Part shown: one piece after another, positions 53-5,829 of the stretch | How the letters are laid out: each line of letters starts with the position of its first letter | Numbering within the stretch: position 1 is the first letter of the stretch | IMG/VR virus record: IMGVR_UViG_3300000297_000070 | Coordinates: 1-5,829 of that record | Length of the DNA stretch: 5,829 nt | Strand: one strand, 5' to 3' | From: a virus | Translations under genes and position numbers: made by a program | The notes under the pieces: model-generated | Told to the model about the DNA's origin: nothing | The model's input: the letters and a program-made list of their open reading frames with translations, nothing else | The model's database searches: none

Positions 53-768
53 GTGTAATTTTCGTCTGTGTATCCCGTCACCGTTGCATTACCTGTCAGG
101 TTGATTTCCACAGGATCAGATTTTAACGGCGAGGGCAAACAGGATGTGAAGTAGTCGTGGAATTTTCCAGCTTTTGCCGGTTTCATTCCGTATAGTGCTC
201 CTTCGTTCATGTTCGTTGTTTTTTCCGGGTCGTTGGCGCTATATTTGATGTCTGTCGTTCCATCTCCCGCTGGGATTCCGCCTTCGTCGGTTTTTTTATA
301 GCCTAGCATTAACGGTGCTTCAAGGTTTTCATCCCTGAACCACTCGTTATAGATCATTGCGTAGGCGCGTGCCGGTAGTGCGTTTGCGGTGATTGTTTTG
401 TCTATGTTCGTAGGCAGTCCGAAATAATCGCCGATGCTCCCGTTTTGGATTCCCTTTGCTACTCCAAATTGGCAAGTCGGCGTGCTGTATTCGGTTTTTT
501 CTGCCCAATAGTCGGTGTTATTTTCGCCGAACATATTTTCCCAGTGTTCCCACAGCAGACGGCACGGAACAAAGAAGAAATAGGTATCCATGTAGCAGTT
601 ATCCATGATAGGATAGATAGGCGTGCTCATACGGATAAGGCCGTTCAGGTGTACTTTTGCGGTATCGCCCGGCAACACTTCGTCGCAGTAGATGGGTACC
701 AGGTCGCCTTCGTTGATGGTCGTCAACAGCTGGTGACTTCTGTCAAATTTGCTTCGCGGTCGTTCCAT
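1..768 (-). CDS. VP1: Major capsid protein, N-terminal 256 codons (continues across the circular junction into 5777..4881; 554 aa in total)
   Basis: ATG at 768-766. I checked all 256 minus-strand codons down to base 1 by hand and found no stop. Translation: MERPRSKFDRSHQLLTTINEGDLVPIYCDEVLPGDTAKVHLNGLIRMSTPIYPIMDNCYMDTYFFFVPCRLLWEHWENMFGEN... This is the N-terminal signature of Microviridae F/VP1 capsid proteins (RSxFDxSH, TT, G-L-P, EVLPGDT). The ORF is missing from the track because it runs off the window edge. Confidence 0.95.
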   Translation of the reverse strand, partial: MERPRSKFDRSHQLLTTINEGDLVPIYCDEVLPGDTAKVHLNGLIRMSTPIYPIMDNCYMDTYFFFVPCRLLWEHWENMFGENNTDYWAEKTEYSTPTCQFGVAKGIQNGSIGDYFGLPTNIDKTITANALPARAYAMIYNEWFRDENLEAPLMLGYKKTDEGGIPAGDGTTDIKYSANDPEKTTNMNEGALYGMKPAKAGKFHDYFTSCLPSPLKSDPVEINLTGNATVTGYTDENYTEKTSIYINSFHDGSANP

Positions 769-793
769 TCGCGGCACTTGCGCGAAATGGTTC

Positions 794-1219
794 TCACTGT
801 TTCTGTTCGTTGTCCTTCACCTCCTCCTTTTTTTCTTCCTCTTTTGGCTTCGGCTGTTCGGTCTGCTGCATCTGTTTCAGCTGTTCCATTGTTTCGGCTG
901 CAGCCTCTACCTTTTCGTGCATCGTCATGATGTCCTTCGGCAGATTTTCGAAGTCAGTTCCTTCGGTGTACATCATGCTCTTTGCCTTGATACTGGTGTC
1001 TCCCGCTTCCAGCCGTGCGATTGCGCTTGCAAGGTCGTAGCCTTCGCCCGCTCGCTGGATTTTCTCGTATGTGTTTTCGTTCGGCTGTTTGATGTAGTCG
1101 GTAGTGCCGTTCGGTCGCTTGACTGCTTTCCACGTTGGTGCGGTCTTGCTACCCGGATTGTTTATCACTCGTTCTGTTGGTAGTCCGTAGTACCTTACCA
1201 GTGCATTAGGATTTAACAT
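794..1219 (-). CDS. 141-aa protein immediately upstream of the capsid gene; probable internal scaffolding protein (VP3-like), with a Glu/Lys-rich C-terminal tail
   Basis: ATG at 1219 is preceded by GAAGGAGACGACCA (strong SD, 7-nt spacing). TGA at 796-794. It overlaps the upstream gene by 14 nt. Every ATG on this strand inside it is in frame. Its size, position next to VP1 and acidic tail (EQPKPKEEEKKEEVKDNEQKQ) fit a microvirus scaffold. I cannot confirm homology by eye. Confidence 0.7.
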   Translation of the reverse strand: MLNPNALVRYYGLPTERVINNPGSKTAPTWKAVKRPNGTTDYIKQPNENTYEKIQRAGEGYDLASAIARLEAGDTSIKAKSMMYTEGTDFENLPKDIMTMHEKVEAAAETMEQLKQMQQTEQPKPKEEEKKEEVKDNEQKQ

Positions 1220-1471: not shown

Positions 1472-1588
1472 TTACTCTTTGTCTTTGCTTGCATCCTTCA
1501 GCGCGTGGTAGATTTCGTCGAGCTTTTCAAGGATATTCATCATTAGCGCGATTGCTTCCTTGACGTCCTTGACCTTGATCAGTGCCAT
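1472..1588 (-). CDS. 38-aa hypothetical protein (MALIKVKDVKEAIALMMNILEKLDEIYHALKDASKDKE), predicted helical
   Basis: Not in the ORF track because it is too short. ATG at 1588 is preceded by AAAGGAGATGAATTA (SD, 8-nt spacing). Its TAA at 1474-1472 sits inside the SD region of the next gene. It fills an otherwise empty gap in a tightly packed genome. Confidence 0.5.
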   Translation of the reverse strand: MALIKVKDVKEAIALMMNILEKLDEIYHALKDASKDKE

Positions 1589-1619: not shown

Positions 1620-1736
1620 TTACAGCCGGATACCGCCCCGCGATACCTTCGGTCGTACGTTGATGTTTTTTACCCGCTTTGCAGTCTGGGTAAAGCGCTT
1701 CTGGTCGCCTCGACCCGCTCCGCTTCTGTGTGCCAT
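1620..1736 (-). CDS. 38-aa highly basic DNA-binding/packaging protein (phiX174 J / gokushovirus VP8-like)
   Basis: Not in the ORF track. ATG at 1736 is preceded by AAAGGAGTAAACAA. TAA at 1622-1620. Sequence: MAHRSGAGRGDQKRFTQTAKRVKNINVRPKVSRGGIRL. It has 11 Arg/Lys and 1 acidic residue in 38 aa, and the C-terminal RGGxRL-type ending is typical of small microvirus DNA-condensing proteins. Confidence 0.75.
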   Translation of the reverse strand: MAHRSGAGRGDQKRFTQTAKRVKNINVRPKVSRGGIRL

Positions 1737-1882: not shown

Positions 1883-2275
1883 TTACATCCCCTTTCTGTA
1901 TTTTTTCCCGGTTCGCACATCAAAGTGCACCCAAGTGTTGTATACGATAATGCCGCATTCATCCGGGACGATATCATTCAGCTTGTTGGCAAGTTCTTTT
2001 GCGCTCATGCCATCGACTCGGATATCTGCTGCCATACCGCGCATGTGGTAGCTGTATTTTGCTCCGTTGCATTTTTTGTTCCACTCTGGTGTTCTGTATC
2101 CGCTGGTGATAATGACTGGTTTCCCTATTTTATGTCGGAGGATGTCCAGAACGTTATACAAGTAGTCATCTATGAATACTATCGGACTACCGTCTTTACA
2201 TGCAAATTCTTTTACTTTGAAGTGTCTTGCAAGTTGTACATTTCCGTCTGTGTTCATGATATAACTTTTAAGCAT
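1883..2275 (-). CDS. Zinc D-Ala-D-Ala carboxypeptidase-fold peptidoglycan peptidase (Peptidase M15A / M15_3-like), putative lysin
   Basis: Motifs read directly from the translation: FKVKEFACKDGS, then SGYRTPEWN...SYHMRGMAADI (H-x6-D zinc ligands), then WVHFDV (third His). This is the M15A/VanY-like signature. I prefer the ATG at 2275, with GAGGAG 11 nt upstream. The track's start at 2284 is a TTG that overlaps the stop of the preceding ORF (TTGA). TAA at 1885-1883. There is no N-terminal signal peptide or TM segment. Confidence 0.9.
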   Translation of the reverse strand: MLKSYIMNTDGNVQLARHFKVKEFACKDGSPIVFIDDYLYNVLDILRHKIGKPVIITSGYRTPEWNKKCNGAKYSYHMRGMAADIRVDGMSAKELANKLNDIVPDECGIIVYNTWVHFDVRTGKKYRKGM

Positions 2276-2280
2276 TTTTG

Positions 2281-2442
2281 TCAATTCTCCTCTATTTTAT
2301 TTATCTTCCATTGGCTTATAATGTCATTCTTGGTCCAGATAAGACACTTTGCAAGTTTTTTGCTTTCTGCTAGTGTGTGACGGATTTCCTTTTTGCCTGT
2401 TTTTTTGTTTGTCATTTCGATTTTGTAACTTTTTAGTGTCAT
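2281..2442 (-). CDS. 53-aa lysine-rich hypothetical protein (MTLKSYKIEMTNKKTGKKEIRHTLAESKKLAKCLIWTKNDIISQWKINKIEEN)
   Basis: Not in the track. ATG at 2442 is preceded by GCGAGGTGCTCAGA (SD GAGGTG, 7-nt spacing). Its TGA at 2283-2281 lies 5 nt upstream of the peptidase ATG. Its start overlaps the stop of the 60-aa ORF as ATGA. A strong promoter-like element sits about 30 nt upstream. Confidence 0.55.
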   Translation of the reverse strand: MTLKSYKIEMTNKKTGKKEIRHTLAESKKLAKCLIWTKNDIISQWKINKIEEN

Positions 2443-2621
2443 TCTGAGCACCTCGCTTTCTTTTCTGATTCTATTATATCACATGTCAATATGCTTTTCC
2501 ATGATTTTGCCGTTTTGTAATAAAATTGTAACCTTCTCTTGTAACCCGGTTTTGCTCCTTTGTTTTGAAAGCGCTTTAGCGCCTTGCCGTATGGAGCGCA
2601 GCGGAATACGGCTAAATCCAT
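2439..2621 (-). CDS. 60-aa basic hypothetical ORF between rep and the peptidase cassette (weakly supported)
   Basis: ATG at 2621, and its stop overlaps the next ORF's start as ATGA (2442-2439). Against it: AAGGA abuts the ATG, so SD spacing is poor, and the predicted promoter for the downstream genes lies inside it. It may be non-coding leader or regulatory DNA. Confidence 0.3.
   Translation of the reverse strand: MDLAVFRCAPYGKALKRFQNKGAKPGYKRRLQFYYKTAKSWKSILTCDIIESEKKARCSE
2449..2463 (-). repeat. 15-nt leader repeat, copy 1 (minus sense AAAGAAAGCGAGGTG)
   Basis: Plus-strand CACCTCGCTTTCTTT is identical to 3678-3692. This copy supplies the SD of the 53-aa ORF, downstream of the TATAAT box. 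Confidence 0.8.
2473..2501 (-). promoter_or_regulatory. Sigma70/SigA-type promoter with extended -10, driving the 53-aa ORF and the peptidase
   Basis: The minus strand reads TGGAAA-(17 nt)-TATAAT, and the spacer ends in TGa, giving TGaTATAAT (extended -10). The -10 maps to + 2478-2473 and the -35 to + 2501-2496. The SD and ATG of the 53-aa ORF follow about 25-30 nt downstream. Confidence 0.45.
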
Positions 2622-2642
2622 TCCTTTTTAGCGCTGTGCGCG

Positions 2643-3647
2643 TCATGCTTTTGGTTCACGCCACTTTTGCCTTAGCTTGTCCTTTTCTTTCTGAATGTTG
2701 AGATAGGTTTCATAATCTACGTTTGTGCTCTGTTCGAGATTGACTAAACTTTGTATTGCGTTGCGTCTGCGTCTGGCTCTAACCTCTCTCAGCTCGTCAG
2801 AATGTGCCTTAAAATAGCTTTCTGTGTCTTGGCTGGTATCCTTATCTAGAATCTTATCAAAATAGCGTGGAGGCCTTTTCTCGCGTCCTCCCGCGCATAT
2901 GATGCTATCTGTTTTCATGATTTCATCTTTGTGTTCTTTTAGATACTTTTCGCCGATACCTTTTGACATGATTCGGAACTCTGGCTCTCTTCCTTCCATC
3001 CAGTATTTTGCCGTTTGTTCTGCTCCTATGGCTTTTTTGTTGACGTACTGCGCTACGTATGCAAAACTTCCCGGTTGTGCTGGTGAAAAGTCGATCATGC
3101 CCTTTCCCCAGATTTTTTCTAGCCACTCGCTTTTAAAGTAGCTGTTGCCCTTTTGGTTTTTATACCATTGTGCGTCCGGTGGCTTCAGTCCAAATACTAT
3201 TGCATGGTAGTGCGGTCGTTTTGTTCTGTCACCATATTCGGCTGCTAGGAAATATTTTATTGGCTTCTTGTATGCTTTCCGTAGCCGTTTTAAAAATAGC
3301 TGCACGTCTCGTTTGCTCACTGTTTGGCTTTGAATGCTTCTGTATCCTTTAATGATCTCGCCGTATGGGATGTGCTCATCGTCATATGTCAGCGTTAGAA
3401 AAATTATATCGTCCCATTCTTTTGCTTCTAGCTCTATTCTGGTTGCCCATTGGTCAGCCATCTGTTTGCGGCAGTACTCGCATTTACCGCATGGTAATAA
3501 TGCGAATTTTCCTTTTTTGATTCCGTCCATGATGTCCGTTTGTAGTCCTTGCTTTGATAGGTTCTCCAGACTTCCCCATAGCTGTGGTTTTTTCGTGTCC
3601 ATCTGAAATACTAATGGTTTTGTACATGGCATTTTTGTTACCGGCAC
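2643..3647 (-). CDS. VP4: Rolling-circle replication initiator, HUH-Y2 endonuclease (phiX174 A / gokushovirus VP4)
   Basis: Motif 1 is FLTLTY. Motif 2 is RPHYHAIVFG (HUH). Motif 3 is YVAQYVNKK, nearly identical to the phiX174 A active-site YVAKYVNK as I recall it. A CGKCEYC cluster lies upstream. TGA at 2645-2643. The track's start at 3647 is GTG, with AAGGAAG 5 nt upstream. An alternative ATG at 3632 gives MPCTKPL... but has no SD. Confidence 0.95.
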   Translation of the reverse strand: MPVTKMPCTKPLVFQMDTKKPQLWGSLENLSKQGLQTDIMDGIKKGKFALLPCGKCEYCRKQMADQWATRIELEAKEWDDIIFLTLTYDDEHIPYGEIIKGYRSIQSQTVSKRDVQLFLKRLRKAYKKPIKYFLAAEYGDRTKRPHYHAIVFGLKPPDAQWYKNQKGNSYFKSEWLEKIWGKGMIDFSPAQPGSFAYVAQYVNKKAIGAEQTAKYWMEGREPEFRIMSKGIGEKYLKEHKDEIMKTDSIICAGGREKRPPRYFDKILDKDTSQDTESYFKAHSDELREVRARRRRNAIQSLVNLEQSTNVDYETYLNIQKEKDKLRQKWREPKA

Positions 3648-3727: not shown

Positions 3728-3893
3728 GTTGAAAGTGTTGAAAACTCGTTTTTTTAACGTTACTATGTTTATTTATTGTCTTTTTGCTTGTTGAAAACTT
3801 TGTTGAAAACTTGTTGAATTGTTGAATGTTCGTCATTTTGACGAATTTCTTTGTGCAACTTGTTGTTGAAAACCTGTTGAAAGTGTTGAAAAC
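3728..3893. repeat. Iteron-like array: nine GTTGAA-core repeats (coding sense TTCAAC, mostly GTTTTCAAC) in three clusters
   Basis: GTTGAA starts at 3728, 3737, 3790, 3802, 3813, 3821, 3865, 3876 and 3885. Spacing within clusters is 8-12 nt. A perfect 20-bp direct repeat GTTGAAAGTGTTGAAAACTC occurs at 3728-3747 and 3876-3895. AACTTGTTG occurs at 3700, 3808 and 3857. Scanning by eye, I found no GTTGAA or TTCAAC elsewhere in the window. Confidence 0.85.
3829..3845. other. Small hairpin TTCGTCA-TTT-TGACGAA between iteron clusters
   Basis: 7-bp perfect inverted repeat with a 3-nt loop. A stem this short is expected by chance several times per genome, so only its position is suggestive. Confidence 0.35.
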
Positions 3894-3969: not shown

Positions 3970-4842
3970 TTAGTCTCCTGTGTATGCTTGTCCGGATTTG
4001 TACCCATCAATTAGTTTGCGTCTTCTTGCTGCTTTGTTGATGGTATCTTCGGCTACTTTGTCAACACCTTCTTTGGCTGCTTTACCAGCCTTTTTTACTG
4101 CTTCTTTGGCTTTTTCTCCCGCTTTTGTAAGGCCTGTACCTAACTTGTTGGCTGTATAGGCGTAATCGCTTGCTTGTTTTGCGCTCGAGGTTGCCAGCTC
4201 GCTCGCTGCCTGTTCCCAGCTTTTCGCACTCTTAAGTTGTTTTGCGCTGGTGGCCTGTTTTGCCAGCTGTAAGTATTTGTCTGCCAGCTCTGCCGTGTTG
4301 TTGCCGTATTCGTACATTGCGGATACGCTTGCAGCCTGTGCGCTCTGCTGGTTATAGTGCTGACTTCCAATGCTTGCAGATGATCCTGATGGTGTGCTTG
4401 TTGCTCCGTTGGTCGCTGCTAGAATAGGATTGATGCCCGCCGCTATCATGTCCTTTACGGTGTCTTGATAGGCTGTCCCGCGCATTTCCTTCTGAAACGC
4501 TCGTTCTGCTGCTGCTTCTGCGCTATTGTACTTCTTGGCGCTTGCTTGGCTTCCAGCGTTTGCGAGGTTGCTAAGTAGTCCGCTCATCATTTGCAGTGCG
4601 TTCGCGGTGTTTACGCTGCTCTGGTTGCCGAATGTGGCAATACCTGTCGGTGTGCTGATTTGTGTCGCACCGATTTGCTGTGGTGCTGTTACACTGCCGG
4701 TCGTGCTCTCGCTGCCGGTTGTGCTCTCGCTGCCTGATGCTTGGTTGTTCTTGGCGCTGCTCTGGTTGCTGTTCGTTATGATGCCTGTTAACATGCTTAG
4801 CCCTTGCATGAGAGATGGCAAAAGCTTTAATAACGTCTCCAT
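3970..4842 (-). CDS. VP2: DNA pilot / minor capsid protein (phiX174 H-like, gokushovirus VP2)
   Basis: 290 aa. The block AERAFQKEMRGTAYQDTVKDMIAAGINPILA matches the conserved (R/N)xFQxxMxxTAYQxxVxDMxxAGLNPxLA core of microvirus pilot proteins, from memory. The N-terminus is hydrophobic, the linker is rich in Ser/Thr/Gly/Gln, and the C-terminal region is Lys/Ala-rich and probably coiled. Confidence 0.9.
   Translation of the reverse strand: METLLKLLPSLMQGLSMLTGIITNSNQSSAKNNQASGSESTTGSESTTGSVTAPQQIGATQISTPTGIATFGNQSSVNTANALQMMSGLLSNLANAGSQASAKKYNSAEAAAERAFQKEMRGTAYQDTVKDMIAAGINPILAATNGATSTPSGSSASIGSQHYNQQSAQAASVSAMYEYGNNTAELADKYLQLAKQATSAKQLKSAKSWEQAASELATSSAKQASDYAYTANKLGTGLTKAGEKAKEAVKKAGKAAKEGVDKVAEDTINKAARRRKLIDGYKSGQAYTGD
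4694..4734 (-). repeat. In-frame 18-bp tandem duplication inside the pilot gene (encodes GSESTT GSESTT GS)
   Basis: The units are 4694-4711 and 4712-4729 (CTGCCGGT[C/T]GTGCTCTCG) and differ at one base. A partial third unit covers 4730-4734. Confidence 0.85.
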
Positions 4843-4844
4843 TC

Positions 4845-4870
4845 AAAAATAGCCCCGCTTTTGCGGGGCT
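4845..4870 (-). terminator. Rho-independent terminator/attenuator between the capsid and pilot genes
   Basis: The minus strand reads AGCCCCGC-AAAA-GCGGGGCT followed by ATTTTT. This is an 8-bp GC-rich perfect stem. The pilot gene's ATG (4842) starts 2 nt after the T-run. Confidence 0.7.
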
Positions 4871-4880: not shown

Positions 4881-5829
4881 TTAGATTCTTTCGATGCCGG
4901 GAATGCTGTAAATAGGCATTTCACGGTACCATTCTTCGGTGAAGTAGAAGTCACACAAGAACTGGTGACTTTTTGCGCTCGTCACTGCAATCGTTCGGTC
5001 AATGTTCTGTGTTCCCTCTTGGATCCACTCCGCAGAGAGATGCGGAAGCGCGTCATAATCGTCTGCATAGTGCCATGCGTCTAAACTCGTTTGGTAGTTA
5101 GAACGCATTTCACCGGTTACGTAAGAAGGCTTGTAGCGGTAATCCGCCCATGCTTCTTGATATCCGAAGATTTCGTTATCTTCGGCCGTGCCCTGTGCAT
5201 AGATTTCACGGTTATACACTGGCTGTTCGCCCAGTGCTGCAAGTCTCGGGTCGTAGTAGGTAAACCGTCCGCCACGTGTCCACTTGGTCGCAAGTCCTTG
5301 CTGGTAACTGTGCTCTACTCGTACCACTGCCAGACCGATGATGTAGCCATACTCAGTTGCTGCATAGTCTACCATTTCCTTGCTGCATGTGGTCAGGCTG
5401 TATGCTGCCGTATTGCCCAGTGCCTGCCCGGTTGTCTTGTCCGTTTGGCTCGTCTGCACGACCTGATTGACATTGATCGCGATGCGCTGTCCGCCGATGT
5501 ACTCAGGAATCTGTAGCCGGCTGTCCGGGCTTGTTACACCCCACGTACCAGACAGGAACTCACGGTATCGCGTGCCGTTGCGTGCATCTGCTTCAAAGAT
5601 GTGCTGCAAGGCAATTGCCATGCGCAAGTCTTGAATACTGATTGCGCTTACGCTGCTTAGGTCTGCACCAAGGTATGCTACTTTGTGGTCTGAGCCACTT
5701 CCGTCTCCAATGTTTAAGTATGTTGCACCGGTACCTCCGTCTTGTCCGATTGCATACAGTTTATTTCTGGTGTTGCCCGGGTTTGCGCTTCCGTCATGAA
5801 AGCTGTTTATATAGATGCTCGTTTTTTCT
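4881..5829 (-). CDS. VP1: Major capsid protein, C-terminal part (5777..4881 is unique sequence; 5778-5829 repeats 1-52)
   Basis: The minus frame is open from the window edge to the TAA at 4883-4881. The track's ORF (4881..5627) begins at an internal TTG, and I checked codons 5628-5777 by hand and found no stops. The sequence contains ...RLQIPEYIGGQRIAINVNQV... and ...YQEAWADYRYKPSYVTGEMRS..., typical of the C-terminal half of F/VP1. It joins in frame to 768..1. Confidence 0.95.
   Translation of the reverse strand, partial: EKTSIYINSFHDGSANPGNTRNKLYAIGQDGGTGATYLNIGDGSGSDHKVAYLGADLSSVSAISIQDLRMAIALQHIFEADARNGTRYREFLSGTWGVTSPDSRLQIPEYIGGQRIAINVNQVVQTSQTDKTTGQALGNTAAYSLTTCSKEMVDYAATEYGYIIGLAVVRVEHSYQQGLATKWTRGGRFTYYDPRLAALGEQPVYNREIYAQGTAEDNEIFGYQEAWADYRYKPSYVTGEMRSNYQTSLDAWHYADDYDALPHLSAEWIQEGTQNIDRTIAVTSAKSHQFLCDFYFTEEWYREMPIYSIPGIERI
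5778..5829. repeat. Terminal direct repeat, copy 2 (duplicate of 1-52)
   Basis: Identical 52-mer at the other end of the window. It lies inside the capsid reading frame. Confidence 0.95.

Follow-up and report, generated by a model that had tools for sequence, protein, structure and literature searches.

Lysis by the microvirus phiX174 depends on protein E, an overprinted single-gene lysis protein that acts as a membrane-anchored inhibitor of MraY. Another class of genes was described in human-gut gokushoviruses by Roux et al. (2012; PMC3394797), who noted an affinity to Faecalibacterium and proposed an endolysin role. The peptidases of this class from gut Gokushovirinae and Alpavirinae (PMC3394797; KX513876, annotated as 'peptidase M15'; MG945xxx, annotated as 'similar to peptidase') belong to the M15_3 family, are encoded downstream of VP4, show a Faecalibacterium/Clostridia affinity, and are not accompanied by a holin. 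In Ebor, a microvirus of the 'Tainavirinae' infecting Rhodobacter, the protein Gp7 is, according to its authors, the first verified peptidoglycan hydrolase of an ssDNA phage; it degrades crude Rhodobacter peptidoglycan and occurs in trace amounts in purified virions (PMC11980548). A further Ebor gene product, Gp1 (45 aa), is a predicted membrane protein (PMC11980548). Outside the microviruses, the closest described systems are the endolysin of Faecalibacterium phage FP_oengus (Caudoviricetes), a single-domain protein (about 135 aa) that ends in a basic C-terminus and whose gene adjoins and is followed by genes for a transmembrane protein and an annotated holin, and the secreted 213-aa zinc D-Ala-D-Ala carboxypeptidase of Streptomyces albus G (PDB 1lbu), the prototype of M15A.

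The whole stretch of DNA analyzed here, 5,829 nt and hereafter called the window, comprises the complete genome of a gokushovirus-type microvirus (~5777 nt) plus an assembly overlap of 52 nt, and all its genes are encoded on the minus strand. The gene under study is the following.

1883..2275, minus strand: predicted M15A/Peptidase_M15_3 zinc peptidoglycan peptidase, 130 aa (PF08291, PHROG 894)

The genome combines this PF08291 gene with VP1, VP2, and VP4, and the nearest homologues of the gene outside the microviruses are bacterial or belong to tailed phages. In Pfam family, neighbourhood, Clostridia affinity, and lack of a holin, the gene shows no essential difference from the gut Gokushovirinae and Alpavirinae peptidases; it is another member of the known microvirus M15 class and not a new discovery. 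The earlier note on this DNA thus overstated the novelty of an M15 gene in microviruses, a class described by Roux et al. (2012; PMC3394797), and its remark that no functional study was known is outdated by the work on Ebor Gp7 (PMC11980548). The likeness to Gp7 lies in the size (about 15 kDa) and in the role of an accessory microvirus wall hydrolase, whereas Ebor belongs to another subfamily, has a Gram-negative host, and encodes the predicted membrane protein Gp1. Protein E and the window peptidase would both be holin-free solutions to microvirus lysis, but the latter is an enzyme, and its genome contains no overprinted hydrophobic ORF on the coding strand. New here are the conserved promoter and junction upstream of the peptidase, the clade-wide absence of a transmembrane ORF, and a hypervariable upstream slot, with the adjacent 'unknown ORFs' interpreted as interchangeable cargo.

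The peptidase ORF reads from an ATG at 2275 to a stop at 1885-1883 and carries the motifs SGYR, H77-x6-D84 (in SYHMRGMAAD), and H117-F-D119 (in VHFD). It matches Pfam family PF08291 (Peptidase_M15_3) over profile positions 2-108 of 108 with E=1e-21 and 77.6 bits, against a curated cut-off of 23.2, so that the whole domain is present, and it matches PHROG 894 ('endolysin') with E=2e-42. In the alignment with 1lbu (E about 1e-4), which follows the pattern SxHxxGxAxD, H77 and D84 fall on the zinc motif SRHMYGHAAD; the alignment covers about 45 residues of the secreted Streptomyces enzyme. The residues H77, D84, H117, and D119 are invariant among 47 homologues, and H117 is presumably the third zinc ligand. 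The dN/dS values of 0.09-0.21 indicate purifying selection. Judged from its sequence, the 130-aa ORF is a single-domain M15A (Peptidase_M15_3, LAS-type zinc, clan MD) peptidoglycan peptidase, and the earlier reading of it as an M15A-like peptidase with a full zinc signature is borne out by the motifs, both family matches, and the 1lbu alignment. Structure prediction, a check that the earlier note had proposed, gave a mixed picture. The AlphaFold2 model had a pLDDT of 44 from the single sequence and a mediocre 72 with 47 close homologues. The latter model matched predicted M15A structures of viral proteins with E=5e-10 and TM-scores of 0.68-0.70, with matches that are partly sequence-driven, but a Foldseek search among solved structures found none at E <= 0.001; what it listed, arginine repressors and ribosome recycling factor among others, was noise and did not include an M15 fold. 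A profile search of the sequences of solved structures found nothing beyond 1lbu.

Homologues of the peptidase constitute 1370 protein clusters (at 90% identity), and the best 120 of these 1370 lie on contigs no bigger than one or two microvirus genomes. The gene is carried by all close VP5 relatives whose upstream sequence is long enough to show it; its alleles in these genomes range from 42 to 96% identity, and its position differs in some of them. The nearest GenBank records are 88-89% identical to the window genome at the nucleotide level and have the peptidase annotated. Over its full length the protein is 45% identical to the FP_oengus endolysin, and both are single-domain proteins of similar length with a basic C-terminus; however, the transmembrane protein and holin that follow the FP_oengus gene are both missing from the window microvirus. 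The best cellular homologues (37-44% identity) come from Clostridia metagenome-assembled genomes, and 185,579 reference genomes of bacteria and archaea contained neither a prophage nor a close homologue. These comparisons support the interpretation of the peptidase as an accessory, horizontally acquired gene for a plausible lysis enzyme, as the earlier note proposed; on the endolysin ancestry, Roux et al. (2012; PMC3394797) had arrived at the same view. A gut gokushovirus lineage presumably took the gene from a lysis cassette like those of Clostridia tailed phages, and the gene is now almost fixed in that lineage.

Neither the protein nor its surroundings offers a route across the membrane. 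The N-terminus MLKSYIMNTDGNVQLARHFKVKEF has no hydrophobic run and contains no signal peptide or signal anchor, which distinguishes the protein from secreted and SAR (signal-anchor-release) endolysins; longer forms of the peptidase in databases are upstream read-through and likewise have no hydrophobic N-terminal segment. On the coding strand of the circularised genome, the N-terminus of VP2 is the only ORF of >=20 aa with a Kyte-Doolittle(17) value >= 1.2, and no E-type hydrophobic ORF is embedded out of frame anywhere on this strand. In 82 related loci, the surroundings of the peptidase (-1100/+700 nt) likewise contained no transmembrane-like ORF, and transmembrane ORFs are absent from about 111 of 117 related whole contigs. 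As no small transmembrane protein is encoded beside the peptidase in this genome or the 82 loci, the locus is not a canonical holin-endolysin cassette. The earlier observation that there is no holin, signal peptide, or E-like ORF is confirmed and extended to the circular genome, the 82 loci, and the 117 contigs. Antisense to the peptidase itself, an ORF stays open in just 2 of 83 loci; another antisense ORF (749-1183, plus strand) is hydrophobic and intact in 61 of 85 relatives, a point that counts against the main reading given below, although we tentatively attribute it to composition.

Two small ORFs downstream of the peptidase are shared with genomes that have no peptidase.

1620..1736, minus strand: 38-aa very basic ORF (MAHRSGAGRGDQKRF...RGGIRL), probably a J/VP8-like DNA-binding protein (phrog_10695, E=4e-6)
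1472..1588, minus strand: 38-aa amphipathic-helix ORF with the core ILEKLDEIYHAL, conserved in relatives

The J-like ORF is the next gene of the operon after the peptidase, with 89-100% identity in close relatives and about 64% in peptidase-less genomes. The amphipathic-helix ORF, which in many relatives begins 5 nt after the peptidase stop, occurs in 79 of 82 loci. Scanning for its motif with a degenerate DNA pattern retrieved 117 contigs, 108 with the peptidase and nine without, thus the ORF is not peptidase-specific. The nine contigs, from a sister lineage, encode the 38-aa, J-like, and slot-type ORFs, and neither the peptidase nor any other enzyme-sized ORF, which suggests that the core lysis route is independent of the peptidase. 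Candidates for the lysis function are thereby reduced to the core genes that both groups share, namely those for VP2, the amphipathic-helix protein, and the J-like protein.

Transcription and translation signals around the peptidase include a promoter, a terminator-like hairpin, and a conserved junction.

2473..2501, minus strand: sigma-70/sigma-A-type promoter with extended -10, TGGAAA-17-TGaTATAAT (scan and conservation)
4851..4870, minus strand: GC-rich hairpin with a T-run between VP1 and VP2 (terminator scan)
2273..2290, minus strand: conserved junction GGAGAATTGACAAAAATG with the Shine-Dalgarno sequence, the TGA stop of the slot ORF, and the peptidase ATG (alignment of relatives)

The promoter (2501-2473) scores 10 of 12 matches plus the TG. 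Within the window alone, the number of promoter-like sites equals the chance expectation (7 found, 7.1 expected); among relatives, both boxes and their distance of 17 nt are maintained despite a variable spacer sequence, and the strict pattern occurs upstream of the peptidase in 37 of 69 loci and is absent from the other 173 kb of coding-strand sequence scanned. The earlier note had assigned the peptidase its own promoter. The extended -10 promoter is indeed real and conserved, but it is not private to the peptidase. The coding strand has no terminator-like site other than the hairpin, which likely marks the end of the late transcript; none follows the peptidase directly, and the next one in the direction of transcription comes after VP1. 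The promoter therefore most likely drives the whole late operon, with the peptidase as its first fixed gene, and the operon would be read in the order peptidase, J-like protein, 38-aa ORF, VP5, VP3, VP1.

The junction is conserved whichever ORF lies upstream, and the slot-ORF stop is usually separated from the peptidase ATG by 5 nt or overlaps the gene by 8 nt. In the window, as described earlier and confirmed by reading the sequence, the TGA of the upstream ORF (2283-2281) stands 5 nt before the ATG and within an in-frame TTG. This geometry points to translational coupling, such that translation of the peptidase may be coupled to that of whatever small cargo ORF fills the slot. The TTG (2284) was considered as an alternative start of the peptidase and rejected; in two relatives (L027 and L028) it has lost the reading frame through a 1-nt deletion, hence the ATG is the start codon. 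A promoter-like TTGACA-17-TATCAT (2284-2256) was also dismissed. With its -10 box the site reaches into the coding sequence of the peptidase, where the N-terminal sequence common to the aligned relatives would not preserve the box, and we treat the site as a chance match on the conserved junction.

The region between VP4 and the peptidase holds two small ORFs, which the earlier note proposed as partners of the enzyme, and a structured element.

2281..2442, minus strand: 53-aa basic ORF, predicted sporadic cargo gene in a hypervariable slot (dN/dS, homologues, gene caller)
2439..2621, minus strand: 60-aa ORF of the earlier note, open in this genome, not a conserved gene
2567..2643, minus strand: structured non-coding element (ACGCGCACAGCGC...GCCGTAT-loop-ATACGGC...GGCGCTAAAGCGC; conservation and covariation)

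The slot between the promoter and the peptidase contains at least 11 unrelated families of small ORFs in close relatives and no such ORF in 24 of 73 loci; the distance from the promoter to the peptidase ATG is 25-33 nt in loci with an empty slot and grows to about 200-275 nt in those with a filled one. These families were counted by strict clustering, as single-linkage clustering chained unrelated basic peptides and was discarded. At least two of the families also occur in sister genomes without the peptidase, and none of the slot ORFs in the 82 loci contains a hydrophobic segment. The 53-aa ORF of the window has a dN/dS of 0.05-0.13 and was called by the gene caller of the public assembly; it has no Pfam or PHROG match, its homologues form 32 clusters on contigs of <=7.4 kb, compared with 1370 clusters for the peptidase, and its family is found in 4 of 82 related loci. 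On this evidence we regard it as a genuine cargo gene of sporadic occurrence that is predicted to be unrelated to the peptidase. The promoter-proximal, gene-swapping slot may be a place to seek microvirus anti-defence or host-takeover proteins. The 60-aa ORF ends within an ATGA (2442-2439) that also holds the start of the 53-aa ORF; however, about half of the relatives have a 1-nt deletion that interrupts the 60-aa frame (TGGA-TTAGCC reads ATG GAT TAG), and the ORF was not called by the public assembly's gene caller. The amino-acid identity of this region to relatives is alike in two overlapping frames, which indicates conservation at the DNA level, and the ORF overlies the structured element. 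The survey of homologues and synteny suggested in the earlier note thus found purifying selection on the 53-aa ORF, but neither small ORF is conserved beside the peptidase, and both drop out as lysis candidates.

Thus, we propose, with a probability of roughly 60%, that the peptidase is a horizontally acquired cytoplasmic endolysin that reaches the wall via the core gokushovirus lysis route. Given the absence of both a signal peptide and a phage holin, the enzyme would accumulate in the cytoplasm, gain access to the wall only once the membrane is compromised by the core lysis function, which the peptidase-less sister genomes would use as well, and then speed up or complete wall breakdown. An abundant clade (1370 clusters) would in this way keep a holin-less, signal-less endolysin that sister genomes do without. 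Co-transcription with the structural genes is just as compatible with a role in the virion or in entry, and a low-copy enzyme in or on the virion could open the wall for DNA delivery through the VP2 pilot conduit. Such a role requires no holin, and M15A domains occur in large, probably virion-associated proteins of tailed phages, including a 1191-aa 'cell wall hydrolyse' and one protein with a Gp5 N-terminal OB-fold domain. We nevertheless regard it as rather unlikely, since the peptidase is collinear with a free, holin-associated endolysin, has no extra domain for docking to the capsid or pilot protein, and is absent from sister genomes with the same virion genes, and since the interior of a T=1 capsid leaves hardly any free space. 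The detection of Ebor Gp7 in purified virions speaks for entry, but the signal is merely a trace (PMC11980548). An entry role would matter most with a thick-walled Clostridium-type host.

It is also conceivable, though distinctly improbable, that the peptidase never crosses the membrane and acts as a cytoplasmic 'enzyme antibiotic', destroying peptidoglycan precursors and starving wall synthesis until growing cells lyse. Its substrates could be UDP-MurNAc-pentapeptide, at the D-Ala-D-Ala terminus or the L-Ala-D-Glu bond, or the inward-facing stem peptide of lipid II. The missing signal peptide and holin throughout the clade agree with this, as do the identity of the only solved-structure relative by sequence, a Streptomyces D-Ala-D-Ala carboxypeptidase, and the existence of VanX, a cytoplasmic enzyme of the M15 family; yet the closest homologues of characterised context are endolysins in holin cassettes, substrate specificity is not readable from sequence, and we know of no precedent for lysis by a cytoplasmic precursor-hydrolysing enzyme. 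If true, it would be an enzymatic form of single-gene lysis, functionally parallel to phiX174 E or Qbeta A2, and would explain why more than 100 related genomes carry the peptidase without holin or signal peptide. Still harder to credit is the model of the earlier note, in which the basic proteins of 53 and 60 aa serve the peptidase as non-canonical partners in release or regulation: purifying selection on the 53-aa ORF and its translational coupling, with the stop 5 nt before the peptidase ATG, are set against a broken 60-aa frame, a slot that is interchangeable or empty, slot families in peptidase-less genomes, and slot ORFs without hydrophobic segments. Equally improbable is a non-lytic role in wall remodelling for superinfection exclusion or in carrier-state wall turnover. 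It would leave the export problem in place, has no supporting precedent, and sits poorly with the strong homology to endolysins, although sister genomes manage without the peptidase and some microviruses show carrier-state life styles (PMC9753089).

The structured element upstream of the slot (~80 nt) is present in 78 of 83 loci and consists of nested helices, with four covarying pairs in the inner hairpin (2612-2586). Across the alignment 99.5% of cells are paired, the observed covariation score was reached by none of 500 shuffles, and three recurrent 1-nt indels all fall in unpaired positions. Folding of the single sequence gives no thermodynamic signal (z = -0.05), hence the structure rests on covariation. 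To our knowledge, replication origins of the gokushovirus-type group have not been mapped; the element may be a replication or priming cis-element, which makes it a candidate signal of this kind for the group. An alternative-frame ORF (2479-2646, 55 aa, ATGA-coupled to the VP4 stop) was considered as the 'real' gene of the element. In 20 of 26 relatives this frame stays open, and certain 1-nt indels are mutually compensating, but early stops occur in 6 of 26, the start is ATA in one relative and missing in the other genome group, substitutions such as K to I/T and R to M affect second codon positions, and every indel lies in unpaired positions of the predicted structure, thus we consider this ORF unlikely. 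An Rfam search of the whole window returned nothing on the element and, on the plus strand at 3782-3865, a weak match to U4 snRNA far under the family threshold.

The 130-aa ORF at 1883-2275 encodes an M15A peptidase and evolves under selection; it has no holin or signal and lies promoter-proximal in the late operon of a complete gokushovirus-type microvirus genome. Positions 1-52 and 5778-5829 form an identical 52-nt direct repeat at the window ends, so the contig is circular with a real length of ~5777 nt, and the repeat is an assembly overlap. All genes lie on the minus strand, as established by ORF listing and profile scans:

2643-3647, minus: VP4 replication initiator
2643-2567, minus: structured element of ~80 nt, recurring in 78/83 loci
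2439-2621, minus: 60-aa ORF of the earlier note
2281-2442, minus: 53-aa ORF
1883-2275, minus: M15 peptidase
1620-1736, minus: J-like ORF, 38 aa, extremely basic (MAHRSGAGRGDQKRFTQTAKRVKNINVRPKVSRGGIRL), matching phrog_10695 (E=4e-6)
1472-1588, minus: 38-aa ORF, amphipathic helix with near-invariant core ILEKLDEIYHAL, in 79/82 relatives
1206-1460, minus: Phage_ORF5/VP5
794-1219, minus: scaffold VP3 of the Chlamydia-phage type
from near 777 across the junction of the window ends to 4881, minus: major capsid protein VP1
4870-4851, between the VP1 stop and VP2 start: terminator-like, perfect 8-bp GC-rich hairpin followed by a T-run
3970-4842, minus: VP2 pilot protein

The closest GenBank genomes are gokushoviruses from human faeces with 88-89% nucleotide identity to the window, in one of which this gene is already annotated 'peptidase M15'; one public assembly contig of 5756 nt (run ERR3986700) contains the identical peptidase sequence. 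The J-like ORF, which is 89-100% conserved among close relatives, is probably the counterpart of the phiX174 J/gokushovirus VP8 DNA-binding protein. Within VP2, an 18-nt tandem repeat (4694-4734, 2.3 copies) encodes the repeated peptide SESTTG.

The coordinates and motifs by which the earlier note recognized the peptidase (SGYR, H77-x6-D84, and VH117FD) are all present in the sequence. The protein covers the full PF08291 Peptidase_M15_3 profile (77.6 bits vs the threshold of 23.2), confirming the proposed M15A-like family, and matches PHROG 894 'endolysin' (E=2e-42); at the level of sequence, the M15_3 assignment is solid. The sole solved structure found by sequence is the M15A prototype 1lbu (Streptomyces albus G zinc D-Ala-D-Ala carboxypeptidase), with an alignment that runs through the zinc motif, and the suggested catalytic residues H77, D84, and H117, together with D119, are invariant across 47 homologues. 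An alignment-based predicted model (pLDDT 72) had no credible match among solved structures; against predicted structures of viral M15A proteins, among them several peptidases of marine microviruses, it reached TM-scores of up to 0.70.

All close VP5 relatives whose sequence extends far enough upstream carry the peptidase, with alleles ranging from 42 to 96% identity. In most of these relatives the 38-aa ORF starts 5-6 nt after the peptidase stop. In several close relatives (loci L112, L132-L134, L137, and L138), a divergent allele of ~45% identity is located between the 38-aa ORF and VP5, in contrast to the usual place upstream of the J-like ORF, which points to repeated acquisition or cassette exchange. 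Thus, the peptidase behaves as a mobile module, yet one that is always retained in close relatives. Outside the microviruses, the best matches are endolysins from tailed phages of Faecalibacterium (44-45% full-length identity), and the peptidase is homologous to holin-dependent endolysins. Among reference genomes, the best matches were Clostridia metagenome-assembled genomes (37-44% identity), with no prophage and no close copy. Strong AAGGAG ribosome-binding sites precede most genes; going by established knowledge, these sites and the TGn extended -10 together fit a Firmicute host better than a Bacteroidota host. The same inferences on host and function were drawn by Roux et al. (2012; PMC3394797), where the gene class, its horizontal origin, the Faecalibacterium affinity, and the proposed endolysin role were all published. 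Since several microvirus clades are also now recognised to carry M15 peptidases (PMC11499846, PMC9865509), the peptidase described here is not new in kind. Another wall hydrolase carried by a microvirus, Ebor Gp7, has been shown to degrade peptidoglycan (PMC11980548).

To compare the upstream region, 80 related loci were gathered with the peptidase as query and aligned over the stretch between the VP4 stop and the start of the peptidase. The promoter TGGAAA-17-TGaTATAAT (2501-2473), previously assigned to the peptidase cassette itself, is present at a conserved position; however, it is best read as the promoter of the late operon, in which the peptidase would be the first fixed gene, given its conservation and the fact that the hairpin after VP1 is the only terminator-like site of the coding strand. 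Its -35, extended -10, and 17-nt spacing are conserved across relatives while the spacer sequence drifts. In the window alone, a promoter scan gave sites no more numerous than in shuffled sequence; across relatives, the strict pattern was found upstream of the peptidase in 37/69 loci, with no match in a further 173 kb of coding-strand sequence. Between promoter and peptidase lies a hypervariable slot, filled here by the 53-aa ORF. The distance from promoter to peptidase ATG is 25-33 nt when the slot is empty and ~200-275 nt when it is filled. Across other genomes, the occupants of the slot fall into at least 11 small-ORF families unrelated to one another; 24/73 loci have no such ORF there. None of the families could be tied to a function; one, a zinc ribbon, resembles Lar-like restriction alleviation proteins below the threshold.

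The 53-aa ORF is a real gene, as it is under strong purifying selection where present (dN/dS 0.05-0.13). Its distribution is narrow, with homologues in only 4/82 loci and, in a large protein collection, 32 clusters vs 1370 for the peptidase, all on contigs of at most 7.4 kb. Both its ATGA overlap with the 60-aa ORF (2442-2439) and its TGA stop, which precedes the peptidase ATG by 5 nt, are in the sequence as reported earlier. The junction GGAGnnTTGACaaaaATG is conserved regardless of the preceding ORF, and slot ORFs terminate either 5 nt short of the peptidase ATG or 8 nt beyond it, indicating translational coupling of the slot ORF and the peptidase.

The reported absence of a holin, signal peptide, or embedded hydrophobic ORF was borne out, and the search for hydrophobic ORFs also covered 82 related loci and 117 contigs. 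Among ORFs of 20 aa or more on the coding strand of the circularised genome, only the VP2 N-terminus has a moderately hydrophobic 17-residue window. No transmembrane-like ORF was found from 1100 nt upstream to 700 nt downstream of the peptidase in the 82 loci, whereas the endolysin gene of the tailed phage FP_oengus adjoins a transmembrane protein and an annotated holin. Small hydrophobic coding-strand ORFs occur in only ~6/117 related whole contigs, which are themselves oddly composed or oversized, and longer database forms of the peptidase are upstream read-through that contains no signal sequence. The T-rich non-coding strand is rich in hydrophobic ORFs, as expected from composition; the one spanning the peptidase is open in just 2/83 relatives. 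A very hydrophobic 144-aa ORF antisense to VP3 (749-1183, plus strand) is intact in 61/85 relatives. No other hydrophobic ORF shows notable conservation, and this one is probably a by-product of the A/G-rich VP3 sequence.

A scan with the 38-aa ORF recovered 117 contigs, 108 of which encode the peptidase. The remaining nine belong to a sister lineage (VP4 ~32% identical), which keeps the 38-aa and J-like ORFs along with representatives of two slot families. Neither the peptidase nor another ORF of enzyme size is present in them. This lineage, with genomes of 5.3-5.5 kb (loci L154, L161, L166, L173, L175, L252, and L257), also has no other recognisable wall enzyme. Gokushoviruses organised in this way can thus evidently achieve lysis with no wall hydrolase. 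As a candidate for a core function, the 38-aa ORF, which is also present in peptidase-less sister genomes, is the best conserved of the small proteins here. We propose as the most likely course that the enzyme would build up in the cytoplasm, reach the wall only once a core lysis function, common to the peptidase-less sisters, compromises the membrane, and then speed wall breakdown.

Less probable alternatives are that the peptidase is carried in the virion as an entry enzyme, that it hydrolyses precursors in the cytoplasm and so serves as an enzymatic single-gene lysis protein, or that its role is non-lytic. A further explanation, offered in the earlier note, makes the 53-aa and 60-aa products candidate release or regulatory partners of the peptidase. 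The close coupling of the 53-aa ORF agrees with it; its occurrence in so few loci and the lack of conservation of the 60-aa ORF speak against it, and the retention of slot families and of the 38-aa and J-like ORFs in the peptidase-less sisters shows that the small ORFs are not peptidase-specific. The modestly new features, as far as we found, include a hypervariable slot for cargo genes that is coupled to the peptidase, the lack of any membrane protein throughout the clade, and the sister lineage without the peptidase.

Modestly new in the same sense is the conserved structured element, which had been mistaken for the 60-aa ORF. The reading frame of this ORF is not conserved, as a 1-nt deletion in about half of the relatives makes it start ATG GAT TAG, and the gene calls of the public assembly include the 53-aa ORF and nothing in the 60-aa region. 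Two overlapping frames show similar amino-acid identity to relatives, indicating conservation at the DNA rather than the protein level. The element (2643-2567) consists of nested GC helices, including an inner hairpin (2612-2586) with four compensatory base pairs. In the alignment of relatives, 99.5% of cells are paired, and the covariation score was reached by 0/500 column shuffles; sliding the 3' partners by 1-3 columns lost all compensatory pairs and left pairing at 48% or less. Three recurrent 1-nt indels all fall at unpaired loop positions. The element matched no Rfam family, and its single-sequence folding energy is unremarkable. It also occurs in genomes with a different VP4 C-terminus; candidate roles are a signal for replication or for priming of the complementary strand. 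One group of relatives (e.g., L017 and L059) has TGTTGAAA iterons immediately upstream of the element on the coding strand. In the window, a cluster of TGTTGAAA/CTTGTTGAAAA iterons is located in the VP2-VP4 intergenic region (3736-3891, plus strand), on the strand opposite to the genes. As the iterons differ in place and strand between lineages, this intergenic module has been moved and inverted.
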